Below are positions 1,024 to 62,635 of a stretch of DNA of 64,000 bases, piece after piece (position 1 is the stretch's first letter; each line of letters opens with the position of its first letter). The notes under the pieces were generated by a model that saw only the letters and a list, made by a program, of their open reading frames with translations, did not search any database and had not been told where the DNA came from. The stretch lies in IMG/VR virus record IMGVR_UViG_3300012208_000003, positions 1,209 to 65,208 of that record; one strand, given 5' to 3'. The position numbers and the translations under genes were made by a program. Source of the DNA: a virus. Lineage: Duplodnaviria; Caudoviricetes.

Positions 1024-1224
1024 ATATGGTGGAACTTACAAACAAATCCGTGCCTGCACTGCCGAGCCAATTCGCTCCCCGTCTTGTCCAACCATATCCA
1101 TCCCAATTGCTCCGTGCCTGCCGTGCCCTGTTCGAACCCCGCCAGATCCCGTCATACCAGTCCGCATCCCGCCTTCCCGTGCCACAAACATTATATACCC
1201 TAAGTTTCAAGGAAGCAAGACGAC

Positions 1225-15101: not shown

Positions 15102-15166
15102 TAATGGTTTTCGATGATGTTGTTGGCGTGGCACGGAAGTAAAGGACTGGCGAGTCGCGATGCGTC

Positions 15167-17026
15167 GTGATAAGACGAGGCGCGGTTTTGCCGGCACGGA
15201 GGTCTGGAGCGGTGCATATTGTAATTGGAAAATCCGAGGGCAAGAACGTTTCCTTGGATGTAAAGGCACTGCTCCGGACCCATCTTCTAATTTGGGCGAG
15301 CACGGGAGGCGGAAAATCGTTTTTGATTCGTCGCATGGTTGAGCAATTGTTCGGGAAAACGCCAATTTTGATCATCGATCGCGAAGGCGAATTTCAAACC
15401 CTGCGCGAAAAATTTGGGTTCGTGCTCGTAGGACAAAATGGCGAAACGCCAGCCGATCCAAGGTCAGCCAAAATCGTAGCTGAGCGACTCCTCGAGATGC
15501 GCGCGTCGGCCGTGTGCGATCTATTCGAACTGAGCCATGAGGCACGTCATGAATGGGTAAGGAATTTTTATCTTGCACTGATCAATGCTCCGAAGCGACT
15601 TTGGGGACCCACAACAGTTTGGTTGGACGAGGCCCATTCCTTCGCTCCTGAGAAAGGGCAAGGTGAATCGATCGCCTACGGCGCCGTGACCGACTTCAAT
15701 GGCGTTGCCCGTAAACGAGGTTTTGGAAGCATCTTCGCCACACAACGCCTAGCCAAACTCAGCAAGAATGCCACAGCCGAAATGTACAACCAGGCAGCTG
15801 GTCCAACAGCGCAGCAATCCGATAGGGACCGTGCGGCCTACGAGATGGGCATTAGCGGGAAGGCGGCGGTGACGGAATTTTCTGACGCTTTACGTACGCT
15901 TGACCCTGGGAATTTCTTCTTTCAGGGCCGTGCTATTTCGATGGACAAGGTTCTCGTCAAGGTTGGTCCAATCCAGACTTCCCATGGAACTGAAACAACT
16001 GGCAAGGCCGCCGCCAAGGCACCGCCAACGCCAGAAGAAGTTAAGAAGATGCTGCCGAAACTAGCCGATCTTCCGAAAGTAGCCGAGGAGCGAGCCAGGA
16101 GTGAAGCCGATCTACGTAAAGAAATCCGCGAATTGAAGCAACAGTTGCGAGCCCAACCGGCCATGACAACAAAAGTTGTCACCGCCCACAAACCCATCAA
16201 AGCTTCCGCTGCGGAGATTCGCCATATACTTCAGGCAGAACTCGATCCATGGCGCAAATTCGCCCAGGATGTGCGTCGCCGGCTGGTTGACTCGATGGAA
16301 TTGATCAACAAGTTTGGCAGCATGTCGTTGGATTTCGCCAATAAGGCAGGTGACTACCTCAAAGAGTATGGCCCGATCCCCAACTATCCAGTTCTGCATC
16401 CTGACTTCAAGGCATTGAAAACAAAGGTGATTGCCCATGGAACCTTACCAGTATTACGCCATGACGAAAATCCTGTCGCGCATCGAACGGAAACTCAACC
16501 GCATCCAGCGCAACTTAACCGCGCGCGAGCAGCTCCGGGCGCTGGCGAGCGTTCCACATGGAACGGCGACCTCCCGCAAGGCGAGAAAGAAATCCTGATT
16601 GCCATTGCTCGCTATCAGGAAGGCGTCGAACGGAACCAACTCACCGTCCTAACTTCATATAAGCGATCGACCAGGGACGCTTATATTGCCAGGCTCAAGC
16701 CTAAAGGCCTGATCGAACTGCGCGGCGATCGGATCCTTGCGACCGAAGCCGGCATTGCAGCCCTGGGCAGCGACTATACGCCTCAACCTGCCACTGGCGA
16801 GGAATTGCAGCGATACTGGATGTCGGAACTTCCCGAGGGCGAGAAGAAAATCCTCCAATTGCTGATTGCTGCAGGCGGGGAGCCCGTAGACAGGGAGAAA
16901 TTGGACGAAGCCACGGGATTTGCCAGGTCCAGCAGGGATGCTTATCTAAGCCGCCTGGGTGCCAAACGCTTAGTGCATGCGATTGGCCGCGGTCAAGTGC
17001 AGGCTTCTCAAAGTTTGTTCACATAG
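15167..17026 (+). CDS. HerA/FtsK-like ATPase with duplicated C-terminal winged helix
   Basis: ASTGGGKS, IDREGEF, LDEAH, ARKRG..ATQR; two LP.GEK.IL...RS(T/S)RDAY repeats. Confidence 0.8.
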   Translation: MIRRGAVLPARRSGAVHIVIGKSEGKNVSLDVKALLRTHLLIWASTGGGKSFLIRRMVEQLFGKTPILIIDREGEFQTLREKFGFVLVGQNGETPADPRSAKIVAERLLEMRASAVCDLFELSHEARHEWVRNFYLALINAPKRLWGPTTVWLDEAHSFAPEKGQGESIAYGAVTDFNGVARKRGFGSIFATQRLAKLSKNATAEMYNQAAGPTAQQSDRDRAAYEMGISGKAAVTEFSDALRTLDPGNFFFQGRAISMDKVLVKVGPIQTSHGTETTGKAAAKAPPTPEEVKKMLPKLADLPKVAEERARSEADLRKEIRELKQQLRAQPAMTTKVVTAHKPIKASAAEIRHILQAELDPWRKFAQDVRRRLVDSMELINKFGSMSLDFANKAGDYLKEYGPIPNYPVLHPDFKALKTKVIAHGTLPVLRHDENPVAHRTETQPHPAQLNRARAAPGAGERSTWNGDLPQGEKEILIAIARYQEGVERNQLTVLTSYKRSTRDAYIARLKPKGLIELRGDRILATEAGIAALGSDYTPQPATGEELQRYWMSELPEGEKKILQLLIAAGGEPVDREKLDEATGFARSSRDAYLSRLGAKRLVHAIGRGQVQASQSLFT

Positions 17027-21881: not shown

Positions 21882-22381
21882 AACGCCTTCTGATTTTTTT
21901 CCTGCTCACTACTGCCGCTAACGCAGGACCAAAGCATTTTGTTAAATCCGTTGGTTCACAGTTCAAGCGCACTTTCTATACTGATGTCAAAGCACACCCA
22001 CTGGCCTGGGGAGTGCCATTGGCACTGCAATTTGCAATTGTTTTCTCGGATGCCGGAAGTTCCTGTGCCTTGCCAGAAAGAATGCAGGAAGTCGGATTAT
22101 CTCGATATTTCATTGGAAGATATCCCAAGTGTCATAAATACGTCTTATGGACGGCTGCCTCGATGACGGTTCATGCCACGGCCGAAAATTGGCTAGCGAA
22201 TAAGTTCACTGATGCGTGCCTGACCGATGCTGTAGACAGAGGCAGCATATGGTGGAAGGTTCCAGCTCATACACACGATCCATCAGACTGTTTCAAGTGG
22301 GTACCAATTACTGACACGATTGCCATTGGAGCTCGTGAGATTCCGGCAATTAAGGGCAACGTGAATCTTCTTCAAAAGTGA
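21878..22381 (+). CDS. secreted/membrane hypothetical protein
   Basis: Signal peptide MKRLLIFFLLTTAANA. Confidence 0.55.
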   Translation: MKRLLIFFLLTTAANAGPKHFVKSVGSQFKRTFYTDVKAHPLAWGVPLALQFAIVFSDAGSSCALPERMQEVGLSRYFIGRYPKCHKYVLWTAASMTVHATAENWLANKFTDACLTDAVDRGSIWWKVPAHTHDPSDCFKWVPITDTIAIGAREIPAIKGNVNLLQK

Positions 22382-22547
22382 TGAAATATAGCAATTTGAT
22401 CGGGCGGTTTGCACTCTCACTACGCAGGTGGTGGACGAGAAAACGCGCTTGTCCAACCTGCAAAGTAACGGTCGATGGTCATGGCGACGCGCATCACCAA
22501 CCCGGCTGCAAGAACGCACCAGATTGAAACTTAGTGCTTAAGTTTAG

Positions 22548-22576
22548 TTGACACGGCTTCAAAGCAAGACTATCCT
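22548..22576 (+). promoter_or_regulatory. sigma70-type promoter
   Basis: TTGACA, 17 nt, TATCCT, ending 10 nt before ATG 22586. Confidence 0.65.
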
Positions 22577-22585
22577 CAGAGAATT

Positions 22586-23229
22586 ATGTCAGTTGAAGAA
22601 ACGATGAAAGTCGTTGAACTGGTTCGTCGCGGCCTGATTTCAACAGACGACGCTCGCAGGATGCTCGGTTTCGTGGACAAAGTTACTCCGCCAGTTCTTA
22701 CAACAAACCATACAAATTTTCTTGGCGAGAGTTACATTCCTGCCTGGCCGTCCGATTGGTCCTTCACGGTCGATACAGTAACGGTAACGAATACTACAGT
22801 ACCTAACGGTTCTTCTAATTCTCCCGCACCGGTCGACTTCGAAAAATGGAAAGAAGACTTTGGGGCTCAGTTTATCCGGGAGAAAGCCTTGCCAAAGTCC
22901 GATCCGGAACCGGAAATTCTTCCGCTTCATGCAAAGCGTAAAATCACGCTGGAAACATGAAAAAGAAAAAATTAAAGAAGCTTCTCCGGCAAGCATTGGA
23001 GAAATCTAAGCCGGCCCCCAAACGTGCCCGCCGCAAGGCGCCAGCAAAACCATTCCAGCATTCCAAAGACGTGCTTTCTCTCATGCAAAAAGTGAAACGA
23101 CAGCTCGAAGATCTCAAGAAACCCGTCTGGCCGCGCATCGATACTTCCTGGCAACCTACTGCCGCTGAATATCGCGCCATGGACCGCACCCTGTCGATGA
23201 TGGAAGTCGACCCGCGGCTATATTCTTAG
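22586..23229 (+). CDS. two hypothetical proteins (22586..22960, 22957..23229)
   Basis: Coupled ORFs downstream of the promoter. Confidence 0.55.
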
Positions 23230-23830
23230 AGTGCTTGCGTCTCCATCTACATTGTGCTGCGGTATTTTTGTGAGTTTGGCAACAATATGTTTGCTGCTCA
23301 ATCCGTGGAACGAACACTTTATTGCACCATAAGCACTTGCGCTCGCGGCCCAAATCGCCAGGTGCATCCGCACAGACTACAGATATAGTTAGCAAATCTG
23401 ACTCGCCATCGGATTCCGCGTGCACGATTACATCTTGGGCAATAGATTTTTGCTTTGGGTGCACGATTGGAATAGATTTTTCCTTTGGATAATAAAACCT
23501 TACTATTCTTAGTTCCCATTTCGCTGGTCCTCTCTTTGAATTGCAACGATAACATACCGGCTCAACATCAAGTGGTTTGGCATAATCACGATGGTCGTAA
23601 ACAGTGGCTCTATTTCCACAGTCACGACAAGCTGTTTCAATTAACTTTAAGTTAGGCAGGAGACCACTTTGCACTGCCCGGCGAACGATAGTACCGGCTC
23701 GTTTGGCTGCGCAGCTGTGGGCGATATGTTCTAAGGCCGTGAGTTTAAGCACCGCATCTATATATATATCATTAAAAATTTCCCTTGACACGTAAAATAG
23801 CAGGTGTATTCTTTGAATCGCTCCTGGCAC
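23156..23830 (-). CDS. HNH-like protein with C-terminal Cys motif (start uncertain)
   Basis: CRDC..YDHRDYAKPLDVEPVCYRCN; CLWC..F.PR..Q.YC; AT-rich; the only convincing - strand gene. Confidence 0.6.
   Translation of the reverse strand: MPGAIQRIHLLFYVSREIFNDIYIDAVLKLTALEHIAHSCAAKRAGTIVRRAVQSGLLPNLKLIETACRDCGNRATVYDHRDYAKPLDVEPVCYRCNSKRGPAKWELRIVRFYYPKEKSIPIVHPKQKSIAQDVIVHAESDGESDLLTISVVCADAPGDLGRERKCLWCNKVFVPRIEQQTYCCQTHKNTAAQCRWRRKHSKNIAAGRLPSSTGCGPWRDIQRQ
23785..23812 (+). promoter_or_regulatory. promoter for the structured RNA array
   Basis: TTGACA (23785-90), 16 nt, TATTCT (23807-12); predicted start near 23819-20 coincides with unit 1. Confidence 0.65.
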
Positions 23831-23942
23831 TGTTTAGGCGTTACATGGGCCAATTGGTAGGCCAACTGATTCTTAATCAGTCTATCCTGGTTCAAATCCA
23901 GGTGTGATTCCCCGCAAGGGGCGCTTGAACGACATCCAGGGC
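23820..23942 (+). ncRNA. Y RNA-like unit 1 (tRNA-Lys(CTT)-like cloverleaf cargo)
   Basis: CCTGG/CCAGG stem, CACTG, TTTAGGCG/CGCTTGAA, TTACATG, CGACAT; D, anticodon (TTCTTAA) and T arms inside. Confidence 0.75.
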
Positions 23943-23993
23943 ACTTAATTATCCCGGACCTTCGGGAGAACAGAAGATCCGGTTTTATGAGCT

Positions 23994-24126
23994 TGGCTGT
24001 TACTGCAACTGCGTACATGTGAGAGTAATCTCATCTTAGGTTCGACTCCTAAGTCCGGCGCCTATGCCGGACGCCCGTGGGGGCACCATGTTCCCGAAAG
24101 GGAATCGCAGCGGCGACATACAGCCA
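23994..24126 (+). ncRNA. Y RNA-like unit 2 (permuted tRNA-like cargo)
   Basis: TGGCTGT/ACAGCCA, TACTG, CTGCG/CGCAG, TACATG, CGACAT; T arm TTAGG-TTCGACT-CCTAA then loop-closed GTCCGGC/GCCGGAC. Confidence 0.75.
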
Positions 24127-24133
24127 TCGTTTT

Positions 24134-24249
24134 TGGCGACACTGAATAAGGCTACATGACTGTCGGCGAATAGCCGACCCCCCTCCACCAATCAATGGGG
24201 GGGGGGGCCGCGCAAGCGGGACTATTGAAACCTTGTTCGACATTCGCCA
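24134..24249 (+). ncRNA. Y RNA-like unit 3 (three-hairpin cargo)
   Basis: TGGCGA/TCGCCA, CACTG, AATAAGG/CCTTGTT, TACATG, CGACAT. Confidence 0.75.
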
Positions 24250-24256
24250 GTATTCT

Positions 24257-24382
24257 TGGCGGTCACTATTCGGGATACATGGATAGAGCACCAGCTTCAC
24301 CGCTGGAGATCACTGGTTCGAACCCAGTTAGCTGTAATGGCTATAGCTCAGTGAAACACAACACCCAGATGACATACCGCCA
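24257..24382 (+). ncRNA. Y RNA-like unit 4 (tRNA permuted at the D loop)
   Basis: TGGCGGT/ACCGCCA, CACTA..TGACAT, TACATG; GATAGAGC, anticodon-like arm, T arm, closed acceptor, TAGCTCAG. Confidence 0.75.
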
Positions 24383-24389
24383 TTGTTTT

Positions 24390-24529
24390 TGGCACTCACT
24401 GTATCTGCTTACATGTCATATGGAGACCGAGGTCGTTGGTTCGAATCCAACCGTCCCCATTTCGACGGGGACGTAGCTCAGTGGTAGAGCGCGTAGGCCG
24501 AAAGGCCAAAGCGGATCGACATAGTGCCA
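24390..24529 (+). ncRNA. Y RNA-like unit 5 (YrlA-like T arm, acceptor, D arm order)
   Basis: TGGCACT/AGTGCCA, CACTG, TACATG, CGACAT; GTTGG-TTCGAAT-CCAAC, CGTCCCC/GGGGACG, TAGCTCAGTGGTAGAGC. Confidence 0.8.
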
Positions 24530-24607
24530 TTCTATTATCCGGACTCGATGTTTCGCTAAAAAAAGCGCGGTACAGGGCGGCTGGCCTATGCGGGGTCCGG
24601 AAAATCT

Positions 24608-24674
24608 TGGCCTTCACTGGCCGGCTTACACGACTGTTAATCGTACGCAACACAAGCCGACCGACATAAGGCCG
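24608..24674 (+). ncRNA. Y RNA-like unit 6 (anticodon arm only)
   Basis: GGCCTT/AAGGCC, CACTG, TACACG, CGACAT; ACGA-CTGTTAA-TCGT hairpin. Confidence 0.7.
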
Positions 24675-24720
24675 TTCTGAATTTTCAACCAACCGTGAAC
24701 GTGTTGAAAATCGCAGTACG

Positions 24721-24758
24721 GCGGCCAGGGGCTTGATGAACCTGGCCGCATCTGTTTT
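24721..24758 (+). terminator. terminator-like hairpin closing the RNA array
   Basis: GCGGCCAGG/CCTGGCCGC followed by ATCTGTTTT. Confidence 0.45.
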
Positions 24759-24771
24759 AGGGAGAAACAAA

Positions 24772-25397
24772 ATGGGAAGCGACAAGACCGATGTAGCGGT
24801 AGCACCATCCACAAAAAAGAAATCCGACGACAGATTTTATTTATTGGAATTCACAAACCGTCCCGCACGGTGGGGTGACGTTGGTTCGTTGCTCCGATTA
24901 CAAGGTGTAGTCATTGGGGGCGGTGGGACCGGTGCCGTTTTGATGTTGCCGGGCACAATGCCGAAAATCGGCGAAGCCGGGTGGAGCGCGAACTGGCTTG
25001 AACTTAGCCTCGAAGAATGGAGCGATTGGCTTCAGGCCAGTGATTCCCTCAAATTCTTGTCGGCCCAAGTTTGACCGGTCCGCAAGGCGTAACGCTGCCA
25101 AAAATTTGGGCGCGAAAATTGCGCTATGAAGTGTCCGGCGCAGTTCAGCAAAAAGTTTGGGCTGCTGACCGTTTTAAATGCTATTACTGCGGCGCGAAAA
25201 TGGGTGACACGCTTTTGACGGTTGATCATTTTGAGCCACTTGAAAATGGCGGCAAAAACGATCCTACGAATTTTCTGACGGCCTGCCGGCGTTGCAACAA
25301 AGATAAAGGCAGCGAACCGGCAGAAAAATTTTGCGAGAGACGGCACATCGACTTCGAAGCCGTGAAAATATATCTGGCATCTCGTAAGATTTCTTAG
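24772..25397 (+). CDS. HNH endonuclease, apparently split by a -1 frameshift (24772..25074 + 25044..25397)
   Basis: Strong RBS at 24772; second frame has CYYCG..LTVDHFEP..GG.N..N..TACRRCNKDKG but no RBS. Confidence 0.65.
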
Positions 25398-25406
25398 GAG
25401 AGAGCA

Positions 25407-25799
25407 ATGCCCGAGAGAATCGAACTGGAAATATCCGAGTGGGGCAGGCCAATCGTTTACATCGCCGACTACTACGAAAGATGCATACCGGGCGTGGCTG
25501 TCGAAGGGATCTCAAATCGCTGTTTATTCAACAGCCGTAAGGAAGCGATCCGCTGGGCTAAGTTCTCGGCAAAGCACAAGATCGACTGGTCCAGTTGGAA
25601 GGCGCCGCAAGGACAATATCCCTACGAGAGCGCTCGGGATGATGTTAGGTTAACACCAACGTTCATCGCTGAGCAGGGACAATGGCCAGAGGAGCCGCAC
25701 GTCAAAGTAACGGTGACGAAGGTCGAGGTATGTGGAGAGTTCAATTGGTGGGCCAAAGAAGCGGATGGAGATTGGAACGAGAAAGGCGGTGTCCAATGA
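25407..25799 (+). CDS. hypothetical protein
   Basis: AGGAG RBS, 130 aa. Confidence 0.6.
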   Translation: MPERIELEISEWGRPIVYIADYYERCIPGVAVEGISNRCLFNSRKEAIRWAKFSAKHKIDWSSWKAPQGQYPYESARDDVRLTPTFIAEQGQWPEEPHVKVTVTKVEVCGEFNWWAKEADGDWNEKGGVQ

Positions 25800-27004
25800 A
25801 AGCATTCGGTTGGGTCTTTGCAATTTTACTTTTTGCAGTGCCGGCGCGGGCGCAGGATTGCGACAACGTTGTGGCCGATTATTCCGGCAGTCTCAAGTCC
25901 GGCGACGCAGAGCGGATTCAGGCAGCCGCGCAACCACTCATAGCTCAGGGCGGCGATCTGCGTGTGCGTATCATCGGCACGACAACGAATCTCGACATGG
26001 ACGAAAAAAACATCGAGCGAAGCTGCTTGTCATGGCAATCTCCGAACCATGGCCGAAAGTCCAGTTTGATCGTGCTGATGGTTTCGCCGCTTAGCCACAA
26101 GATGGGCATCTATTTCGGCAGTGCGTTCGATCATGCGCTCGCAGACCATTGGAACCGGATCAAAACCGATTACATGGGGCCGCATTTCAAGACTGGCGAT
26201 TGGGCGGGCGGGTTCGTTGCAGTCGAGCAGCAGATTACAAGCAGGATCAAGGCCGCTAAAGACGAAGCCGTTCATCCGGCAACTATTACCACGGTCAACC
26301 AGGCGGAAGACTTATCCGGACTATGGATCGTTCTCAAATGGTCCTTATTTCTAGCCTTTCTGGTAGTTGGCATGTATTTCGCGCTTGCCTGGTGGAATAA
26401 GCGCCGGAAAGCGCAGCAGGAATTGCGTGAAGCACAGCAGTTGGCGATTACGACGAAGGCTTGCGCGGCTGATTTACTCAACAAGGCAAACAGCGCCAAG
26501 ACTGCCACGCTCGATAGAGCCTTAGAGGAATTTGCGAGGCTGGACGGGTCGCTACGCAATGACCCTAACGCCGATGATCTGACGATTGAGGAATATCATG
26601 TCATTGCTTTGCAGTACCAGAAAATCGTGGACATGCTCGATAGAACTTCGATCGACAGGATGAATCGGCCTGTCCAACCATCGGTAGCACCGCCGCCACC
26701 GAAGAAGCAGGCAAAAGCAGCAGCGGCAACGACAGGATCTCCCGGAGCGCCTTCGACTTCGACAACGGTCATCAACAATACGGAAGTGGTTCCAGTCCCG
26801 ATAATCATCCCGGAGCCGGTAAGAGAACGCGAACGAGACCCAGAGCCTTCCCATAGCCACCGTTCAAGCCGTAGTTCTGACGATGACAGCAGCGGCGGAG
26901 GTTCAAGTAGTTGGAGTAGCGGGTCCAGCGATAGCGGTGGTTCTTCGGACTTCGGCGGTGGTGGGAGCGATAGCGGCGGGGGAGGAGGCAGCAGCGATTT
27001 TTGA
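25796..27004 (+). CDS. TPM-domain membrane protein with Gly/Ser tail
   Basis: Signal peptide; V.D..G.L, LIVLMVS..MGIYFG, PHFKTGDWAGG; TM helix; GGSSDFGGGG tail. Confidence 0.75.
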   Translation: MKAFGWVFAILLFAVPARAQDCDNVVADYSGSLKSGDAERIQAAAQPLIAQGGDLRVRIIGTTTNLDMDEKNIERSCLSWQSPNHGRKSSLIVLMVSPLSHKMGIYFGSAFDHALADHWNRIKTDYMGPHFKTGDWAGGFVAVEQQITSRIKAAKDEAVHPATITTVNQAEDLSGLWIVLKWSLFLAFLVVGMYFALAWWNKRRKAQQELREAQQLAITTKACAADLLNKANSAKTATLDRALEEFARLDGSLRNDPNADDLTIEEYHVIALQYQKIVDMLDRTSIDRMNRPVQPSVAPPPPKKQAKAAAATTGSPGAPSTSTTVINNTEVVPVPIIIPEPVRERERDPEPSHSHRSSRSSDDDSSGGGSSSWSSGSSDSGGSSDFGGGGSDSGGGGGSSDF

Positions 27005-27130
27005 TACGAGTTCACCGTCCTACGCCGTCCAGTGGCGAGCGGACGTGAGTACGTTCCACTGGCAGGGAGGCTATCGCGCTAGTTAGGCGTGGCCTCCCTG
27101 AGACGATCTTTAACGAAAAGGAGAACACAA

Positions 27131-27817
27131 ATGTCAGGATTCTTAGCAAAACTTCGCGTGGTCACGTTGGGCTCCGTGCACGATCTACTTGATAGGGCCA
27201 TCGATTTAAATTCGCCGTCCGTGATCCGGCAGTACACCCGGGATCTAGAGGACGCGCTCGACCGCATGAAGAGCGAAGCGGCGGTCCAGGCCGGCACAGT
27301 TCGTACCTTGCAGCGCGAAAAAGGAGAGCTCGAAGGCCGGATCAAGACCACCGAAGTAACGATTCAGCACCTGGTTCAGGCCGGGCACGAAGACTTGGCG
27401 CGGCCGAAAGCGGCTGAGCTAACACGCATGCGAGCCAAATTTGCCGGAGCGGATGAAAATATCGAACACGCAAGAAAAGCGTCTACCGATATCGACATTG
27501 CCGTTTCCAATCTCGAAGGCAAGCATGCCGAAATGGTCTCCAGAGTACGCGAACTCGAACAACTCGACCGCGATACCAAGGCCAAGAATTCCGCAGCATC
27601 AGCTCTGGCAGCAGCTGGCCGACTGATCCAGGGCGGCAGCGATGTCAATGTGGACGATGTGCAAAGCCGCATGAAGGCGAGTAACGATGTCGCTCAGGAA
27701 AAATTCGCCAGGGCGCTCGGCGAATCTGCCATCCAAGAAGACGCGGAAACCGCCGCGGCTACCGATGCTGTTTTGGCGGAATTTCGACAAGGCAAAGTGG
27801 CAAGCAGTAAGTGGTAA
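27131..27817 (+). CDS. pspA: PspA/IM30-family protein
   Basis: N-terminal amphipathic helix, LLDRA..SP..IRQY.RDLE, long coiled coil, G.EDLAR. Confidence 0.75.
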   Translation: MSGFLAKLRVVTLGSVHDLLDRAIDLNSPSVIRQYTRDLEDALDRMKSEAAVQAGTVRTLQREKGELEGRIKTTEVTIQHLVQAGHEDLARPKAAELTRMRAKFAGADENIEHARKASTDIDIAVSNLEGKHAEMVSRVRELEQLDRDTKAKNSAASALAAAGRLIQGGSDVNVDDVQSRMKASNDVAQEKFARALGESAIQEDAETAAATDAVLAEFRQGKVASSKW

Positions 27818-27836
27818 GCAGTTTAGGCGCGGAGTC

Positions 27837-27909
27837 GCAGGCATGGCGTGTAGAGAATCGGAGTGGTACGCATTGACATGGCCGGCACTGGTTCGGCAGG
27901 GCAGCGCAG
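27837..27909 (+). ncRNA. pentamer (NNNNG) guide-like array A
   Basis: GCAG, G at 27845 to 27900 every 5 nt, GCAGC, GCAG. Confidence 0.85.
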
Positions 27910-27924
27910 GCACGGTGAGTTGAC

Positions 27925-28167
27925 GTGAGCACCATCGAAGAACGCATCAAGACGCTCGTCAGCGACAATCTCGGCGTTGGCGAGGAGGAAGTCACATCCA
28001 ATGCATCGTTCGAGCATGATCTTCACGCGGATTCATTGGATATCGTTGAATTGGTCATGGTAATTGAAGAAGAATTCAAAATCGAAATACCCAACGAGCA
28101 AGCAGAGGAGCTCGTCAACGTTGGGCTCTTAATTGAGTATGTGACCAAGCGCGTTGGGAAGCAGTAA
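27925..28167 (+). CDS. acpP: acyl carrier protein
   Basis: [39 protein letters not shown]. Confidence 0.9.
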
Positions 28168-28207
28168 GTAGTTTGGGCGCGGAGCAGTAAAAGCACGGTA
28201 GGTCATC

Positions 28208-28286
28208 GCAGGCGCGGACAGGCGGGTTTCGGTTTGTGAAGGAGAGGCTAGTCATGTCCCGGCATGAAGGGGGCAAGGCATTGCAG
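28208..28286 (+). ncRNA. pentamer guide-like array B
   Basis: GCAG, 14 units (one hexamer), GCAG. Confidence 0.85.
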
Positions 28287-28300
28287 GCAAGGAGACGTTT

Positions 28301-29806
28301 ATGAATGAAAGTGGTCTATCGAAGAATAAAATCATCGCGGAGCTTTCGAAGTCCGCGCATGGCAGTTTGCAAGAATATGTGTCCGTCGGCAAACAGGCCG
28401 CAACGGAGCACGGCGAATTTTTCGCACATCTAATTGCTTGGGATCGCTTGAAAGGCGCGATTCGCGACAGCAAAATTGCTTTGCCGATCGTGAGTTTACT
28501 GGCCCCAAATTATCCGGCCGAATTTGTGGAGAATTCGCTGGCAGCTCTTTCTCTGCTCAATCCCCGCGAGCAGCTCAAGGCGCTCCGGTTCGTGCTAGAG
28601 ACACGTGTGCCCGGACACATGACTTCAATCACCCATACTCTTGGCATTTCGCTGCTCGAGCGCGAAAAAAATTGGCCAAAATGGGAACGGCAAATGCTCC
28701 AGCACCGTGCCGTGCTCAAGGAATTGTTCAGCCTTTTGCACGTCAAGCCGCGCGATCAGCGCACCAAAGCATGTCTCTGGCGTTGCGATAAGCACGATGG
28801 CAAGCGCATTCCGCTGCCGTATCCGGAAGGTGGGCTGTTTGAAATTGTGGCACGGCTCAAAGACCTGCCACCGACGGAAGCGGCCGGCGTAATCATGAAT
28901 AAAAAAATTCCGTTCCTTGTTGCCATGGGAGCGCTCGGCGAGAAAGCCCGAGAAACGGATCTCGTGTTGGCGCTCATCAAATCAATGACGAGCACGGAAT
29001 TGATCACTAACACGAAGATGCTCGAACGCCTGGGCATCAAGACGAACCCGGCGCTGCGCGGCGCTTTCCAGGAAGCGCTGGAAAAGGCCGGCAAGAGCAC
29101 GGCCAACATTCTCAAGACGACTCGTGCGGCTGAGAATATCGACGATGAAGAATTGAAAGAGAATCTTCGTGGCTTGCAAGAAAAACAAATTGCAAGCCTT
29201 GGCGGCGAAGGCAATTGGGCCGTTTTGGCCGATAAGTCAGGTTCCATGACCAAGGCGATCGAACTTGCCAAACATGTTGCTGCTACTTTGGCAAAATTGG
29301 TCCATGGCAAAGTGTGGTTGATCTTTTTCGACACTGCGCCACAATCCATCGATGTTACGGGCATGGCGCTGGACGTTATCAAAAACGTTACACGATACGT
29401 TCAAGCTAACGGCGGAACATCGATTGGATCCGGTTTATTGCGCCTATTCGAAGCGAAAGAGGAGGTTGACGGCGTTTGCATTATTTCGGACGGCGGCGAA
29501 AATACAGCGCCGACGTTCCCGGATGTCTACAAACGATATTCGGAGATGTTCAGGAAGATGCCGCCAGTTTATCTTTATCAGACGCAAGGCGACTCGCCGG
29601 CATTGATTACGACGATGCAGCAAGCTGGACATGACATGCAGGTATTCGACTTGCGCGGCCAGGAGACCGATTTTTACTCCCTGCCAAATCTTGTTCAGAC
29701 GATGCGGACTCAAAGGTTTTCCCTGTCGGACGAAATTATGGGAACAAAACTTTTGCAGTTGTCGGATGCTTACAAGACGACTGTCAAAAAAACGGCCACG
29801 GCGTAG
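28301..29806 (+). CDS. Ro60/TROVE-like protein with C-terminal vWA domain
   Basis: Helical N-terminal 300 aa (KIPFLVAMGAL, SMTSTELITN..L.RLG); MIDAS DKSGS, GGTS, ISDGGEN. Confidence 0.65.
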   Translation: MNESGLSKNKIIAELSKSAHGSLQEYVSVGKQAATEHGEFFAHLIAWDRLKGAIRDSKIALPIVSLLAPNYPAEFVENSLAALSLLNPREQLKALRFVLETRVPGHMTSITHTLGISLLEREKNWPKWERQMLQHRAVLKELFSLLHVKPRDQRTKACLWRCDKHDGKRIPLPYPEGGLFEIVARLKDLPPTEAAGVIMNKKIPFLVAMGALGEKARETDLVLALIKSMTSTELITNTKMLERLGIKTNPALRGAFQEALEKAGKSTANILKTTRAAENIDDEELKENLRGLQEKQIASLGGEGNWAVLADKSGSMTKAIELAKHVAATLAKLVHGKVWLIFFDTAPQSIDVTGMALDVIKNVTRYVQANGGTSIGSGLLRLFEAKEEVDGVCIISDGGENTAPTFPDVYKRYSEMFRKMPPVYLYQTQGDSPALITTMQQAGHDMQVFDLRGQETDFYSLPNLVQTMRTQRFSLSDEIMGTKLLQLSDAYKTTVKKTATA

Positions 29807-29950
29807 AAATCGGCGTGCCCGTCACGTTCCGAAAGGCTTGACCGGTATCTAGGTTGAGAGTGACGGAGCCGGTAAAAGGGACAAGCACTAACGTTCCTCT
29901 GGCACACGTGGGGACGGCCAATTCACCGGCCGTCCTGCCAGTTAGGCATG

Positions 29951-30103
29951 GCAGGCGCGGAGAGTCTTGACGAGATACGATTTGGAGGGACGTGCAGCGG
30001 TCCGTTCCGTCGAGGCTGGCAGCGGCAGCGCAGGCTTGGCGAGTCACGTTCTGGTAAGTCACGTTGTGGAGAGTAGAGGAAAGACCGGAACGCGGCAAGG
30101 CAG
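29951..30103 (+). ncRNA. tandem pentamer guide-like arrays C1 and C2
   Basis: GCAG (29951), 15 units, GCAG (30030), 13 units, GCAG (30100). Confidence 0.85.
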
Positions 30104-30140
30104 GCATGGAGTTAAATTCTAATGAAAGGAGGACAAGAGC

Positions 30141-30449
30141 ATGCTCAATGCGTTGAAATCTTATAGCCCTCAAAGACTAGATACTGAAGAGTTAATTGAA
30201 CTCGCAGGATTTGGTCGATTGCTTGAGGCAGAATTCACTTTGTTGAGTGTTGAAATTCCCGAATGGATTGGCAATCAATTAAAGGCCATTAGACGGGAAA
30301 TCAAAATGCGTAACGCCGATGCTATCGCGAACAAACTTCGCGCCGCAAAGGCCCGCCTTTCAACGCTCGCAACAGTAGATGAAAAAAGAGCCGCAGTTGC
30401 AGCCGAAATCGCTCAACTTGAAGAACTGGCAAAGGCCGCAAGCGCCTAA
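30141..30449 (+). CDS. helical hypothetical protein
   Basis: AGGAGG RBS, 102 aa. Confidence 0.75.
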   Translation: MLNALKSYSPQRLDTEELIELAGFGRLLEAEFTLLSVEIPEWIGNQLKAIRREIKMRNADAIANKLRAAKARLSTLATVDEKRAAVAAEIAQLEELAKAASA

Positions 30450-30571
30450 GCAACGGCGATCCTGTGCATGTGGGTGCGGACGCAAGTTTTCCCCACGCGT
30501 CCGCACCCAACTTTATTTCTCGGTCCGGTGCAAGAACCGGGCGGCGCAGACACGCTGGCGAAAGAACGGGA

Positions 30572-31243
30572 ATGGACGAGCACATTGAATGCCGGCTGGC
30601 ACCAGAAACCGCAAACGAAACTATTGCCTGGCGCGACATCCGCAGGCGGACATTGCGCGAAATGGGCTATATCAAATGCGGCCATCCGTATCATCGGATT
30701 GTTCCATTAAGTCCTTCCAGGGCAACTGGCCTTCAGTACGTACAGGTTACATGCGCATCTTGTTCGGCAGAATTATCAGATGGTTCTATCCCGCGTGATC
30801 CAGCGGGCACTTGGATTGGTGGCACGATTGATGCCGGAATTGATTGGGAAACCATAGACGGATTGTGGCCGAAGCAGGCGGAAGAGCGGAAACGCAAAGC
30901 ATGAATAAACTCGACAAGCGGATCGAGCAAGTCCGTGAGGCTTTGCATGAAGCTGGCCATGGATTGCCCGTTGCCGACTGGACGAGATTGCTTGAAGAAA
31001 TCGCTGCCGACATTGAAGGCCATTTAGACGCAATCAGAGAAGAACAGTTAGACGATGAAAGTTGAACTCAACGAAGAAGGTCGTCAGTTGATTCTCTTGG
31101 CGCTTGCCGAACTGGCCCTATCGCGTCCCGGATTTGATTATGCCCTACGGCAACTGGCGTTGCTTTTCTTTGGCGAAGAGATGTTCGATCATTTCAAAAA
31201 ACTTAATGCGGATCGCGTAAAAGAATCGCGTAGCCTGGTATGA
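30572..31243 (+). CDS. three small hypothetical proteins (~30572..30904, 30901..31065, 31055..31243)
   Basis: Coupled ORFs with overlapping start/stop codons. Confidence 0.5.
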
Positions 31244-31752
31244 ATCCTCCCGGCATCATCCTGATCAATCCTCGTTTCCCTCACAATGTGGCGGCGACGA
31301 TCCGCGCGTGTTCCTGCTTCGGGGTCCCTTCCTTGTTCTGGACCGGCTGGCGAGTGGATCCGACGCAATACGATCGTTTACCGCGCGAAGAACGCATGAA
31401 GGGATATCGGGACGTCACCTGGCGGCACAGCGACCGGCCATTCGATCATTTTAAGAATGCTATCCCGGTCTGCATCGAGATTCATCCGGACTCAATTGCC
31501 CTGCCTGATTTTGTCCATCCCGACAATGCGGTGTATGTATTCGGTCCGGAGGATGGCAGCGTCCCGCAAGTAATTCGCCGTCTTTGTTATTCCTTTGTGC
31601 ATATTCCATCGTTTCACTGCTTGAATCTTTCGGCAGCGGTCAATGTTGTGCTGTACGATCGGGCCATGAAAGAGCATCCGGCAGCCGGCATGAGCGTCGC
31701 CAAACATGAAGTCCGCGGGGAGATCCCGGTACCGGGATGGGATGGACGATGA
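31240..31752 (+). CDS. SPOUT (SpoU/TrmH/TrmL-like) RNA methyltransferase
   Basis: NPRFPHNVAATIR.C..FG, VFGPEDGSV, IPS..CLNLSAAVNVVLYD. Confidence 0.9.
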   Translation: MNPPGIILINPRFPHNVAATIRACSCFGVPSLFWTGWRVDPTQYDRLPREERMKGYRDVTWRHSDRPFDHFKNAIPVCIEIHPDSIALPDFVHPDNAVYVFGPEDGSVPQVIRRLCYSFVHIPSFHCLNLSAAVNVVLYDRAMKEHPAAGMSVAKHEVRGEIPVPGWDGR

Positions 31753-32922
31753 GCCGCATAGAACTCGAGAAGCAGGACAATGGCTGGCTTGTCCGATACG
31801 GAGAATTCTGGGAAGACCACCTGTGCCTTGATGAGGCTTTAGGTTGCGTGGCCTCGATCATGTTCACGGGCCATGCACCATACCTCAAAAACGAACTTCA
31901 GCATTATCTATGGAATATCCATTACGCTCCAAATGACCTGCCGAAATTGCTTCCTGAGAGGGCTGGCCAAACATCACCATGATCGACCACGAAGAGAAGA
32001 AAACCTTAATCACCAACGATACCCGAATGGGAGAAGCGGAACACCGTACCTTGATGGAAGATTCCGGCATAATCGTTACGCCAGAGAAGTTGAAAGAGCT
32101 TGCCGCGCGGTCCCGCGAACGGAAGCTGGAATTTGATGTGATCGCTTGTGCCGGCATGAGCTATCAGCGCGCTCTACGGATTCGCGAACTGCGCAGCAAA
32201 TTAAGTTGGCGCGGCGTAGCCCTTGAGACTTATGCCGAATGGGAAGCAGATGCGCTCTGGGAACCTTCGACGAACCAACTGGCCGGCGTGGCGCTTTGTG
32301 AAGCCGCCGCGCATGTTCTTTCAGAAGACCCTCATAAATCTCCGTGGCAAGCGATGCAATAAATGGCCGAAGAACTCTGCATCACGATTCCCTGCAAGCC
32401 GGCAAAGCCTTGGACGGATGCCGATGTACGGCCGATTCATGTATTCCTCGGCAACGATTCAACCGGAGCAGCGCGAACCTGCTGGCAGTGCCCTTATTGC
32501 AAATGGCAATTCTATCGGCGCAAATCGTGCGAGAAACATATGGGCATGGTTATGAACACTCCCGCGGGCTGCCCGGTCTTGAAAGCCCAGGATGAAGCCC
32601 GGCGCGCGGACAGAAAGAAACTGGATTGAATTTATTTCCAATATGCTAAACTTTCTGCCTGGAGGTTCACATGGGGCAGAAAGTCCGCGCGAAGTTCCAA
32701 GTCCAAGGCGTGAAGAAGACATCGTGGGGCGGCACAGTCATTGAGCTTCAGCCGCAATACGATACATCGATCCCAGAAGACCAACGGTTTGCCAAAGCGA
32801 CACCTTCCGGATTGATTTCCTTGACCATTGACAATCCTTTGGCGGTAGACTTTCTGCAGCTCGGGAAATTCTTTTATGTCGATTTCACGGAGGTTCCCGC
32901 GGCGATGGTAGCGGGCGGTTAA
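31749..32922 (+). CDS. four small hypothetical proteins (31749..31982, 31979..32362, 32363..32629, 32671..32922)
   Basis: Coupled ORFs; 32363 has CPYC..C..H; 32671 has ED.RFAKATPSG.I.L.IDN. Confidence 0.55.
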
Positions 32923-33073: not shown

Positions 33074-33727
33074 ATGGATATTAGCGGAAAGTCGGAAGCC
33101 TCAACTAGTTCTACATTGATCGTTGGCGCTGTTGCACGAATCCAAACAATCGCCGAAAATTTCTGGCATGTCATAAACATGCGTAGGCCCGAAGGCTGTG
33201 ATTGTGCCGGCTGCCGGATGCATCGCTTATTGCCGGAATCTTTGCATGCGGATGCGCAGGATCAAATCCGCTGCCTCAATGCATTCGTCGCCTGGGAAGT
33301 GGCTATTGAAAACCTGGTCACGACCGAAGGCAAAAACGATCTGCTGACAAATTATCTGAAAGGCTCGAGTTACACGGCGGCATTCTACGCGGCTCTCGTA
33401 AACAATGCATCGTTTACCGCTTATGCCGCTGGCGACACGGCCGCACAGATCAATGGCACGAATGGCTGGCTTGAAGGCGTGCCCTACTCGAACGCTAATC
33501 GCGTAACCTGGACTGGCGGGACCGCTGCTGCCGGATCGATCGACAATTCCGCTTCCCCGGCCGTTTTCAATATCAATGCCACGCTTACCGTACGCGGGGC
33601 TTTCTTAAGTACCAGCAACGTAAAAAATGGCACAGGCGGGAAGCTCTATGGCGAAGCCGATTTTGCCGCCGCACGATCAGTATTGAGCGGCGACACGTTA
33701 AATTGCACAATAACTTGTACTGTATGA
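33074..33727 (+). CDS. putative virion structural protein
   Basis: AGGAGG RBS; ENLVTTEG, TVRGAFL, RSVLSGDTL. Confidence 0.6.
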   Translation: MDISGKSEASTSSTLIVGAVARIQTIAENFWHVINMRRPEGCDCAGCRMHRLLPESLHADAQDQIRCLNAFVAWEVAIENLVTTEGKNDLLTNYLKGSSYTAAFYAALVNNASFTAYAAGDTAAQINGTNGWLEGVPYSNANRVTWTGGTAAAGSIDNSASPAVFNINATLTVRGAFLSTSNVKNGTGGKLYGEADFAAARSVLSGDTLNCTITCTV

Positions 33728-34374
33728 TAAATGATATAACAGGGAATAGATTCGGTAGGCTTGCCGTTATACGCAGGGCCGGTTCAACTCCATATACTCC
33801 TTCTGGCGGTAGACGTTCATTATGGCTGTGTCGCTGTGATTGCGGTAAAGAAATAACGCGGACAAAAGATGACCTTTCTAGTGGTCATACAGCTTCGTGC
33901 GGCTGTTTCAGGCGCGATGTAATGTTCAACAAAGCCTTGAAACACGGTCACAATTTACCGGGTAAGCGGACTCGAACATATGAGGCTTGGGCGTCCATGT
34001 TGGCGCGTTGCCTGAATCCTAAAAAGGAAGGATTCGCCAATTATGGGGGCAGGGGAATAATTGTTTGCGAGAGATGGCAGGAATCATTCGCGGATTTTCT
34101 TGCCGACATGGGCGAGTGTCCACCCGATTTATTTATCGACAGGGTCGATAACGACAAAGGCTATTTCAAATCCAATTGCCGATGGACAGACCGAACCACG
34201 AACAACCGCAATCAGAGGAAGAGCATCAGGGTGGATGGAGTTCCACTCGCGCAAATTGCAGAAGAGGTCAAAGTAAGCTACAGGCGTCTCAAATATCAAG
34301 CCGTCACAAAAAAGTTACCTCTTGATCTTGCCATAGCGAACGCTAAGCAATTGGAAATCGGAATTAAAGCATGA
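33724..34374 (+). CDS. HNH homing endonuclease
   Basis: DITGNRFGRL, WLCRCDCG, SCGC, YGGRGI.VCERW, IDRVDNDKGY..NCRW..N.RN. Confidence 0.9.
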   Translation: MINDITGNRFGRLAVIRRAGSTPYTPSGGRRSLWLCRCDCGKEITRTKDDLSSGHTASCGCFRRDVMFNKALKHGHNLPGKRTRTYEAWASMLARCLNPKKEGFANYGGRGIIVCERWQESFADFLADMGECPPDLFIDRVDNDKGYFKSNCRWTDRTTNNRNQRKSIRVDGVPLAQIAEEVKVSYRRLKYQAVTKKLPLDLAIANAKQLEIGIKA

Positions 34375-38167: not shown

Positions 38168-38174
38168 AAGTGTT

Positions 38175-39014: not shown

Positions 39015-39043
39015 TTGACAGGGTTCGTTTAATGTGTGAGTCT
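39015..39043 (+). promoter_or_regulatory. promoter directly upstream of array D
   Basis: TTGACA, 17 nt, GAGTCT preceded by TGT. Confidence 0.45.
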
Positions 39044-39049
39044 TTAAGT

Positions 39050-39125
39050 GCCGGGGCAAGGCGCGGCGTGACCAGTCCCGACGAGCATTGGCCGGGTACG
39101 TCCCGAACGTGGCAGGGCAGGAATG
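39050..39125 (+). ncRNA. pentamer guide-like array D
   Basis: G at 39050 to 39105 every 5 nt, hexamer AACGTG, GCAGG, GCAG. Confidence 0.85.
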
Positions 39126-40362: not shown

Positions 40363-40367
40363 AGTTT

Positions 40368-47673: not shown

Positions 47674-47685
47674 TCAGTCGGCATG

Positions 47686-47763
47686 GCAGGCTTGGACAGT
47701 CGAGAGTTGGACCGTCCGGTCAAGCACCTGCTTGCAGTGGCGTGGAATGGCTTGGAATCGCAG
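47686..47763 (+). ncRNA. pentamer guide-like array E
   Basis: GCAG, 14 pentamers (12 end in G), GCAG; hairpin 47773-47798 follows. Confidence 0.85.
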
Positions 47764-47827
47764 GCGAAGCTAAAAGGCGCATCTTCTGGTGCGCCTTTCT
47801 AATTTCAAAAACGAAAGGAAGTGCATC

Positions 47828-50411: not shown

Positions 50412-50500
50412 TTACGGCGAGGCATGGCGTGCAACGTTCAGGCCTGATGTGGTGAGGTCGGTCCTGGCACGGCCCGACGATTTGAGGCAGGGCCGGCACG
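50412..50500 (+). ncRNA. pentamer guide-like array F
   Basis: G at 50416 to 50476 every 5 nt; ends GCAGG-GCCG; preceded by extended -10-like TGA-TAGACT (50400-08). Confidence 0.85.
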
Positions 50501-50506
50501 CTTCCC

Positions 50507-50541
50507 AAAAGGCGGGAGATTCTTTTTCTCCCGCCTTTTTT
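50507..50541 (+). terminator. intrinsic terminator after array F
   Basis: AAAAGGCGGGAGA/TCTCCCGCCTTTTTT. Confidence 0.85.
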
Positions 50542-50564
50542 ATATCCCGCTTCGAAGATTAACC

Positions 50565-50942: not shown

Positions 50943-51043
50943 GCAGGCGAGGAGAGATGCGTCAAGGGGAGAATTGGATAGCCGAGCAGTGCAGTGGCAA
51001 GGCAGCGCAGGAACGGCTAGGGCGGACGCCGAAAAGTCCGCCC
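50943..51043 (+). ncRNA. pentamer guide-like array G with GCCGAAAA-loop hairpin
   Basis: G at 50946 to 51001 every 5 nt, GCAGC, GCAG; hairpin 51020-51043. Confidence 0.85.
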
Positions 51044-57319: not shown

Positions 57320-57429
57320 GCAGGAGAGGAGAGATAAGGCTCGGAGAGAAGAAGGCGAGGCTAATCCGGGCGTGGTCAGCACTGTTACGGCAAGGCAGGA
57401 ACGGCTAGGGCGACGCCGCGAAGTCGCCC
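57320..57429 (+). ncRNA. pentamer guide-like array H with GCCGCGAA-loop hairpin
   Basis: GCAG, 14 units (one hexamer), GCAG; hairpin 57408-57429. Confidence 0.85.
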
Positions 57430-58567: not shown

Positions 58568-58671
58568 GCAGGAATGGCCAGTCCTGGCAAGTCGAGGCAA
58601 GTCGGGACCAGAATTGGCCGGGCCAGTTGCGGCAAGGCAGGAACGGCAAGCGGCGGCCGACAACGCCGCTT
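58568..58671 (+). ncRNA. pentamer guide-like array I with GCCGACAA-loop hairpin
   Basis: G at 58571 to 58636 every 5 nt, GCAG; hairpin 58648-58671. Confidence 0.85.
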
Positions 58672-59428: not shown

Positions 59429-59543
59429 GCAGGTAGGGCATGGCGCGGCGCGGCTTGGTTGGCCATGGAATGGCTTGGCAGGCAGCGGCGCCGCAGGCAT
59501 GGCAAAGAAGGACGGCAAAGCCGGAGAGCCGCGAATCTCCGGC
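59429..59543 (+). ncRNA. pentamer guide-like array J with GCCGCGAA-loop hairpin
   Basis: G at 59432 to 59487 every 5 nt, GCGCC, GCAG; hairpin 59520-59543. Confidence 0.85.
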
Positions 59544-62203: not shown

Positions 62204-62527
62204 ATGGTAACGAAACTGCAACCGAGTGCGCAGTACATCGCGCGTTGGCAAGTCACCAGCATGACTTCCGATGCCGAATACATAGTTTCCATGAAGGCCG
62301 ACGGCACCTGGGCATGTTCCTGCCCGTTCTGGAAGTTTCACAAAGCGCCCAAGGTCGCGTGCAAACACATCGACTTGATCTTGTCCAAGGAACCTATCGA
62401 CAAGAGCCGGACGACGCCTGCGGCTGAACAGGCATTCATCCGGGCCGGCCGTAAAATCACAAGCAGTGCTCCGATCGAGCCGGTATTTCTGCTGCAAACG
62501 ACGCGAAGTATTGTTTTGCAGGACTAA
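62204..62527 (+). CDS. SWIM zinc-finger protein
   Basis: WACSCPFW...CKHI; GGGAGAAAC leader. Confidence 0.75.
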   Translation: MVTKLQPSAQYIARWQVTSMTSDAEYIVSMKADGTWACSCPFWKFHKAPKVACKHIDLILSKEPIDKSRTTPAAEQAFIRAGRKITSSAPIEPVFLLQTTRSIVLQD

Positions 62528-62635
62528 CCATGCCTGCGGTGCCATACCAAATCGGGCCGGTTCTTGACATGCCCAACCGAACCATTTCCAGCCAATTCAT
62601 ACCCCGCCAACAAAGATTCTACCATAGGAGGATAG

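Follow-up and report, generated by a model that had tools for sequence, protein, structure and literature searches.

The analysis of a 64,000-nucleotide stretch of DNA from an uncultured soil phage (the window) revealed a run of thirteen G-initiated pentamers between pspA and an acyl-carrier-protein gene. This element, array A, is very probably a VIPR vrRNA, and its most likely function is to silence the pspA gene of a competing phage while sparing that of its own genome. Four features are directly observed: the repeat architecture, matches that follow codon phase with one base skipped, a better match to a relative than to self, and a handle motif in common with arrays adjacent to vipr genes. 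The likely role, silencing of a competitor with sparing of self, is proposed because the relative's allele matches at 11 of 13 dinucleotides and the phage's own allele at 9 of 13.

VIPR has been characterised in Escherichia phage SUSP1 and in a Pseudomonas fulva prophage. In the accessible text of the papers concerned, three bioRxiv preprints of 2026, vrRNAs are described as 9-16 G1 G2 Y3 N4 N5 repeats, and Vipr as a RAMP relative of ~20 kDa whose filament has one protomer for each repeat, with GGY sequestered and N4 N5 presented. The latter pair with double-stranded DNA, every third target base (usually the wobble base) being skipped, and competing phages and satellites are transcriptionally silenced; natural targets were called at a match of at least 80% NN, where no self match was found (10.64898/2026.04.26.720920, 10.64898/2026.04.26.720927, 10.64898/2026.10.15.759431). 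Double-stranded DNA is bound, silencing proceeds from either strand, and inferred targets lie on both (10.64898/2026.04.26.720920, 10.64898/2026.04.26.720927). The same text of the VIPR papers describes frequent internal repeat degeneracy, the repeat variants NNNGG, YNNNG and NNNNG, and seven Vipr types obtained by structure search. vrRNAs are further described there as small RNAs, ~100 nt in length, which are recovered together with Vipr on purification and have an invariable structured 3′ tail.

Array A and similar elements in the window

The thirteen pentamers of array A have the form G-N-N-X-X on the plus strand at 27840-27904, with G as the first base in 13/13: ggcAT ggcGT gtaGA gaaTC ggaGT ggtAC gcaTT gacAT ggcCG gcaCT ggtTC ggcAG ggcAG. 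When the 3′ motif is counted, G is found in 15/16 phased positions, and canonical GGY occurs in 7/13 units. Positions 4-5 of the units, reverse-complemented, read CT CT GA AG CG AT AA GT AC GA TC AC AT, which reproduced exactly the dinucleotide list of the first-pass annotation; the span given there, 27837-27909, holds all 13 units together with a few flanking bases beyond 27840-27904. The array occupies a 107-nt gap with pspA on one side and the acyl-carrier-protein gene on the other. It carries the 3′ motif, folds no better than shuffled sequences (z +1.56), and a scan called neither a sigma-70-like promoter nor a terminator beside it.

About 15 vrRNA-like arrays of 12-18 phased units each are present, singly or in pairs, in intergenic positions spread over at least 60 kb of the window (Table 1). 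Runs of at least eight identical bases (G, or C for minus-strand arrays) were found 18 times with period 5, never with period 4 and once with period 7. With one miss allowed the number of period-5 arrays was 19, of which about 15 were taken as real intergenic elements. Candidates at 60632, 45788 and 21121, which lie inside ORFs, look spurious or redundant, as does 59408, which adjoins 59432, and these were rejected as separate arrays. Common to the arrays are the motifs GGCAYGGCAGG at the 5′ side and GGCARGGCAG(C)GCAGGNAYGG at the 3′ side; with at most one mismatch, ten matches were found in the contig and none in the reversed control. Of 248 units, 54% have G at G2, 73% a pyrimidine at Y3 and 41.5% the full GGY, the invariance of G1 over the same units being built into the array search.

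Inspection by eye showed several arrays to be immediately preceded by promoter-like hexamers and immediately followed by terminator-like hairpins, which gives them the look of small RNA genes. Folding of the repeat cores was no stronger than that of shuffled sequences (z +1.56, +1.13 and +0.33), and the value of -4.19 obtained for 50412-50555 is owed to the terminator. GC-rich hairpins with a GNRA-like or GAAA-containing loop follow several arrays (51007-51040, 57398-57430, 58640-58670 and 59520-59545; for example GGGCGGAC-GCCGAAAA-GTCCGCCC), and a ribosome-binding site and the start of the next gene are found directly 3′ of such hairpins, which could be tail structures or processing sites. 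The search of the window against Rfam at gathering thresholds returned nine tRNAs only. Their genes lie at 39896-40733 and 23838-23913, eight of them (Ala, Pro, Phe, Arg, Tyr, Lys, Met and Ser) in one cluster, and tRNA-Lys(CTT) occurs twice in the window. Genes for one GIY-YIG and two HNH endonuclease-like proteins are also scattered in the window (6164-6841, 25071-25397 and 33703-34374). Comparison of window positions 25000-32900 with GenBank phages by blastn gave no match.

Table 1. Positions in the window of the arrays and of the pspA gene with its target-like site
Feature	Position	Strand	Remarks
pspA (PspA/IM30 family), gene with target-like site	27131..27817	+	PF04012, E 5.4e-11; 53 homologues
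Own pspA stretch, codons 66-78, ELEGRIKTTEVTI	27326..27364	+	array A antisense match 9/13 dinucleotides (69%)
vrRNA, array A	27840..27919	+	13 guide pentamers G1-N-N-X4-X5 at 27840-27904, then conserved 3′ motif GGCAG-CGCAG-GCACGG
Array B, vrRNA-like	28201..28275	+	upstream of 501-aa VWA/Ro-like gene
Two adjoining vrRNA-like arrays	29954..30092 (29954-30043, 30018-30092)	+	period-5 runs
vrRNA-like array	15139..15203	+	9/14 to G002 gene 161852-162445, sense, in frame, p 0.03
vrRNA-like array	39040..39109	+	matches NYxQPDFRxP motif, family of small neighbouring proteins
Free-standing vrRNA gene	47678..47800	+	repeats 47689-47758; promoter-like TTGCCC-N18-TAGAAT just upstream; terminator-like hairpin after
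Free-standing vrRNA gene	50412..50555	+	repeats 50416-50500; strong terminator hairpin
vrRNA-like array	50946..51025	+	upstream of Ku gene; hairpin after
vrRNA-like array	57354..57413	+	upstream of ligase gene; handle motif GGCAAGGCAGGAACGG
vrRNA-like array	58571..58660	+	downstream of ligase gene; handle motif; 16 G in phase
vrRNA-like array	59432..59511	+	upstream of ParB-like gene; weak matches only
vrRNA gene	62524..62608	-	extended -10 (TGGTAGAAT) upstream
Two adjoining vrRNA-like arrays	1039..1183 (1109-1183, 1039-1103)	-	behind TTGCTT-N17-TATAAT promoter-like site

Matches in codon phase

The window was searched with patterns of the form XXnXXn, a skip of one base being the single spacing tested. 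The reverse-complemented XX of array A proved to be identical to codon positions 1-2 of pspA in nine of thirteen cases, at GAG CTC GAA GGC CGG ATC AAG ACC ACC GAA GTA ACG ATT, in frame with the ATG at 27131. No other match of this quality exists on either strand of the window, the runner-up scoring 6. When the order of the dinucleotides was shuffled 1000 times, a window-wide maximum of 9 was reached once and one of at least 8 in 19 cases. The antisense match to pspA reported in the first-pass annotation was thereby confirmed as non-random.

The register of the match was analyzed with 14 arrays, five dinucleotide registers and two orientations; as sense and antisense mirror each other, these 140 tests amount to 70 independent ones. 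Outliers were obtained at positions 4-5 alone, for array A (antisense, 9/13) and for array 50416 (sense, 9/13, becoming 11/15 when extended), each score being reached in 0/200 shuffles. For several other arrays the same register gave the window-wide best match in the neighbouring gene, in frame. With register and orientation freely chosen, the 70 independent combinations would be expected to yield ~0.07 chance matches at p = 0.001. We nevertheless regard the possibility that the 9/13 match is chance numerology as negligible: the match is the unique best of the window and falls in the adjacent gene in codon phase, array 50416 behaves likewise in the same register, and the relative's allele described below changes exactly the two codons needed to raise the score to 11/13.

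The comparison was also made in a set of three genomes of related phages: the window contig (G000), G001 (91.8 kb, 60% complete) and G002 (178.9 kb, 100% complete). A best match at p <= 0.05 was obtained for 11 of the 41 arrays of these genomes (60 shuffles per array). Nine of the 11 were wobble-aligned in called genes, one was at the start of an uncalled small ORF and one was off-phase. The off-phase match belongs to array B, which also shows a weak sense match (7/13) at 28355, in frame in the next gene. The wobble-aligned matches comprise five in sense and four in antisense orientation, which bears out an earlier claim that guides occur in both. Targeting of DNA and not of mRNA, as proposed in the first-pass annotation, would agree with what has been published on VIPR (10.64898/2026.04.26.720920, 10.64898/2026.04.26.720927). 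The XX composition of 248 core units correlates with that of codon positions 1-2 (r 0.78), the values for positions 2-3 and 3-1 being -0.06 and -0.07, respectively; for arrays with no target found, r for positions 1-2 is 0.60 (n 92 dinucleotides). The code, worked out from the letters of the DNA alone, was then found to be identical to the published VIPR rule.

Several details concern the units that do not follow the general pattern and the letters outside the guide positions. The third base of the target was unrelated to pentamer positions 2-3 and to the letters that follow G, and no mismatch asymmetry of the kind that tolerance of G:U pairs would leave was seen. Where a letter other than G, mostly T, stands at the periodic G position (as in GATTT at window 50476-50480 and CCTGC at 47729-47733), the matched codon ended in a pyrimidine in 10/10 counts, duplicates included; for Asp and Phe, XXT would encode the same residue.

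The two adjoining arrays 29954-30043 and 30018-30092 match gene 30141-30449 in sense orientation and in frame (8/15 and 7/13, respectively). The array in G001 that is homologous to 39040 matches the NYxQPDFRxP motif too, with 8/11 and 9/14 in two analyses. The motif, N-Y-x-Q-P-D-F-R-x-P, is repeated in small adjacent ORFs at window 38856-39855 and in the C-terminus of gene 38034-38978; neither Pfam nor PHROG gave a match for the family members 38034-38978 and 39316-39588. For arrays 50946, 57354 and 58571 no targets were found in the window, G001 or G002.

A number of other explanations of the periodicity were considered. The triplet TAG is present in the XXG register of other arrays, so nothing suggests translation, and decoding of the dinucleotides into a peptide is a reading aid only; translation, including quintuplet translation, was rejected on this ground and also because, in split codon boxes, matches to both members occur. 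No explanation of the codon-phased matches is offered by two-layer G-quadruplexes, CsrA-type sponges, sigma-54 promoters, codon strings that bind tRNAs or a Y RNA acting as partner of the neighbouring Ro-like gene, and all of these were rejected. It is known that TRAP-like ring proteins bind RNA at a regular period, which offers an analogy for the 5-nt G repeat. An RNA bound every 5 nt by such a ring, or acting as a sponge, would account for the spacing of G and for the unstructured cores, its dinucleotides carrying no targeting information. It would account neither for the codon-phased matches to genes of the neighbourhood and of relatives, nor for the codon-like XX composition, nor for the co-occurrence of the handle with vipr genes, and we consider it very improbable.

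Alleles of relatives and possible turnover of guide cores

A metagenome contig of 5.4 kb, L158, is 80-87% identical to window 21133-27372 and ends inside pspA, which is 96% identical over the 80 residues present; this one truncated contig is the sole source of the 11/13 allele. Its homologous codons are GAG CTC GAA GGC CGC ATC AAA GTC ACC GAA TCC ACT ATC, giving the dinucleotides GA CT GA GG CG AT AA GT AC GA TC AC AT (ELEGRIKVTESTI). Array A matches this allele at 11/13 (85%) and its own at 9/13, a self match below the 80% NN level of the VIPR papers. The two alleles differ in four wobble bases, which the guide ignores, and in two codon changes, Thr to Val and Val to Ser. Both changed codons are units matched by array A in L158 and mismatched in self. 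On this comparison the best-matched putative target of array A is pspA as it occurs in a closely related phage, and the window's own stretch at 27326-27364 is probably a spared self allele. Two matched units separate the alleles, and their discrimination by the guide is putative.

The first-pass annotation had proposed that homologues of PspA be compared with the dinucleotides of array A, and had decoded these as ending in ...RIKVTESTI. The RIKVTESTI predicted by this decode is present in L158 pspA, and the comparison did reveal a homologue scoring above self (11/13 vs 9/13). The 53 PspA homologues obtained by protein search reached a best amino-acid-compatible score of 10/13, against 9 for self. 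A DNA scan was performed with the nine 3′-most target dinucleotides of array A as the query. It gave 0 matches in the viral contigs scanned and 30 loci in the metagenome contigs scanned; 29 of the 30 belong to one unrelated gene family with a score of only 9/13, and the thirtieth is L158. Separately, in soil runs X3 and X4 a low-depth contig carries 7 other letters in place of the 108-nt spacer (window 27006-27115) that leads from a TPM-domain gene to pspA, a strain-level variation immediately 5′ of the latter. Among the sequencing runs listed as containing the window sequence there was no RNA run; contigs of four DNA runs were compared, and in the two that contain part of the sequence arrays A and B are left uncovered.

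Preference for non-self is not confined to array A. Of nine gene families, six show a non-self best match, two a tie and one, that of array 50416, a self match; one of the ties concerns array A, whose match to its own pspA equals that to G002. Other arrays match relatives at 12/12-12/13, 9/9, 10/11 and 12/14, their own alleles being poorer or absent. For array 47689, 12/13 core dinucleotides (92%) agree, sense and in frame, with a small gene present in both G002 and G001, for which no counterpart was found in the window. The antisense match of array 62608 is to a small G001 gene absent from the window, at 12/14 (86%). The G001 array beside the ligase gene matches G002 ligase at 9/9 (KEGKAKPLP), the allele of G001 itself reading KKGETVALP, and G001 array 49319 scores 10/11 on G002 and 7/11 on self. 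For array 15139, the window's own orthologue of the G002 gene, 41015-41614, matches at 6/14. Non-self matches of at least 80% NN were thus found for array A, 47689 and 62608, and self matches of this quality for none. A partial exception is array 1183, which matches its own gene at 1405-1428 (sense) in 7/8 core dinucleotides but in 8/16 overall.

These data bear on the possibility that the arrays regulate their own neighbouring genes, own matches of 60-73% bringing about graded self-repression and the link with relatives being incidental. The arrays do lie ~0.1-1 kb from the version of the matched gene that the same genome carries, array 50416 matches its own gene at 50075 (sense, 11/15) slightly better than that of G001 (10/15), and the core of array 1183 fits its own gene. 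Self-regulation is nevertheless improbable in our opinion. It is at odds with the predominance of non-self or tied best matches in the nine families and with the two targets that are genes absent from the window; moreover, by the account of the VIPR papers no self match reaches 80% NN, and that of array A is 69%.

The comparison of G000 with G001 also identified homologous scaffolds that carry unrelated cores, namely 47689/74454, 50946/70727 and 58571/62132, in which promoters, flanks and tails are conserved. This suggests core replacement rather than slow drift. At the syntenic locus (window 62523-62650, G001 58380-59100) the scaffold of G001 is empty, the 5′ motif being joined directly to the tail, so that the 62608 guide core and its target gene are mutually exclusive between the window and G001. 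Because unrelated cores occupy homologous scaffolds and the G001 scaffold is empty where the target gene persists, the alignments suggest that cores are gained, swapped or lost. They hint at a way of writing new guides, of which the accessible text of the VIPR papers holds no description.

In G002 pspA, the acyl-carrier-protein gene and the gene for a 501-aa protein abut with no arrays between them, and its only clear array cluster consists of 2-3 arrays at 47911-48075. The ~1.8 kb upstream of this cluster (46100-47900) contains no convincing ORF, and the cluster ends beside a 556-aa gene on the other strand. The 501-aa protein, encoded in the window at 28301-29806, has a weak VWA_CoxE match and a weak match to the PHROG 'RNA-binding protein' family phrog_850, and we take its N-terminus to be reminiscent of Ro60/TROVE proteins. 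Its gene has vrRNA-like arrays on both flanks in the window and none in G002.

Relation to VIPR and the serving Vipr

The window arrays resemble the vrRNAs of VIPR in their tandem G1 G2 Y3 N4 N5 units with N4 N5 alone variable and in the same register, in the two-on, one-off reading with the wobble base skipped, in the use of either strand, in their intergenic position in phage genomes and in the lower match to self. They differ in that they are scattered, each in the vicinity of its own genome's version of the matched gene, and not clustered beside vipr-vap; in that G2 and Y3 are often degenerate; and apparently in their 3′ end, seen as a G-rich motif followed by a hairpin or terminator and with no pseudoknot tail noticed. 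This dispersed layout, with an array beside the target's own allele, is not mentioned in the accessible text of the VIPR papers. As presented there, the crRNA of Class 1 CRISPR on Cas7 is similar in being held by a RAMP-family filament whose thumbs break the guide-target duplex periodically. However, Class 1 crRNA pairs through 5/6 nt with equal periods, whereas the window guides would use 2/5 nt on 2/3 target nt, and CRISPR repeats, cas genes and known spacer acquisition are all lacking in the window. A CRISPR array proper (direct repeats of 20-50 nt with spacers and cas genes) was rejected, the repeat search having found short motifs only; Pfam searches over 94 window ORFs detected no cas domains.

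A further link to VIPR is provided by the handle GGCA[AG]GGCAGGAA[CT]GG, which (with at most one mismatch) occurs five times on the plus strand of the window and not in controls. The vipr gene of SUSP1 was assigned by position, as the gene after the first vrRNA (NC_028808.2 28474-29061), and this presumed vipr is assigned to phrog_4652 (E 7.9e-96). So is the gene that immediately precedes the tandem arrays in the viral contigs L016, L010 and L009, all three of which were found through the window's handle motif alone. In IMG/VR, 518 of 599 pattern-matched stretches encode a phrog_4652 relative. Period-5 G runs accompany vipr on its strand in 77 of the best 80 of these 518 loci; the handle is present on that strand in 20 of the 80 and is absent from the opposite strand and from controls. 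No DNA-level resemblance of the 80 best Vipr loci to G000, G001 or G002 was detected. A scan of genome contigs for the handle gave at least 120 loci, mostly single chance matches, of which 11 had a period-5 run of at least 10; among the matches listed there was no clue to the host.

No Vipr was detected by any of the searches performed. In the window contig, G001 and G002, a six-frame search with phrog_4652 (E <= 1) and a protein search with SUSP1 Vipr gave no match, and a four-sequence HMM run over six-frame ORFs gave a best E of 2. Likewise, hmmscan of 42/94 window ORFs and a scan for the G-loop motif revealed no Vipr, the best probability obtained with hhalign against 270 ORFs was 1.9%, and vap1 (phrog_5926) was not found in the contig searches. 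A complete VIPR locus, with vipr and vap beside the vrRNAs, was accordingly not found in G000, G001 or G002, and since no vipr was found the arrays are classed here as vrRNAs and not as a complete VIPR locus. The window contig is 43% complete. Because no Vipr was found in it or in the two relatives, the arrays may be solo vrRNAs; equally, a divergent Vipr could escape all of the searches because Vipr proteins are very diverse, with seven types.

If the phage has no Vipr of its own, the arrays would be orphan vrRNAs loaded onto a Vipr that a co-infecting or resident element provides, acting as decoys or as borrowed weapons against the relatives of that element. Such solo vrRNAs have been reported from vipr-null phages, and their self matches are lower than the non-self ones (10.64898/2026.10.15.759431). 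The complete genome of G002, which encodes no detectable Vipr and still has 2-3 arrays, is consistent with this explanation, as is the presence of the handle in a quarter of the phrog_4652 loci sampled. The window arrays share with the solo vrRNAs of SUSP1-like vipr-null phages and F5 satellites the lack of vipr in the genome, insofar as it was recovered, the wobble alignment and the weaker self match. On the other hand, the contig is far from complete and the diverse Vipr types could evade the searches. In addition, the ~15 arrays of the window greatly exceed the 1-2 solo vrRNAs described at the vipr-vap1 deletion site, and the targets described for the latter are vipr genes, other vrRNAs, satellites and host repeats (10.64898/2026.10.15.759431), whereas those of the window arrays are ordinary phage genes: pspA, ligase and small or unknown genes. 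We consider the orphan explanation possible but rather doubtful.

In the explanation that we prefer, each unit of array A would consist of a fixed part, G1 usually followed by G and a pyrimidine, held by one Vipr protomer, and a free part, N4 N5. The partners of the 13 free dinucleotides would be codon positions 1-2 on the coding strand of pspA, the wobble base being skipped. The best target would be the pspA of the related phage, the phage's own allele being off at two further codons. Filament formation by Vipr, recognition of double-stranded DNA and repression of transcription are carried over from the VIPR papers, and we infer that the RNAs are expressed and loaded in this phage as well. 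The serving Vipr could be a product of the part of the genome (57%) that the contig lacks, or of another element.

Free-standing homing endonuclease genes recognise conserved, codon-constrained sites in the adjacent gene of relatives, and the linked own allele is resistant. By a similar logic, the vrRNAs of this phage might form dispersed modules of a guide plus a resistant allele, the guide lying within ~1 kb of a mismatched own copy of the gene that it silences in relatives; we put this forward as a tentative and, on balance, unlikely proposal. The parallel is limited in that no link to a nuclease is shown here and the characterised VIPR types repress transcription and do not cut. If such modules exist, recombinants arising in mixed infections would inherit weapon and immunity together, as in the case of homing genes and poison-antidote pairs.

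Overall, the window provides an independent confirmation, from sequence only, of the two-on, one-off code of VIPR in an uncultured soil phage far from the Escherichia coli and Pseudomonas systems. It also offers a natural example of allele discrimination, in which the pspA of a rival and that of the phage itself would be told apart by two amino-acid-changing codons. The ~15 scattered guides, each beside a spared own allele and with no vipr seen, bear on the use of orphan guides and on the renewal of guide cores, the latter being relevant if VIPR is seen as a forerunner of adaptive immunity.
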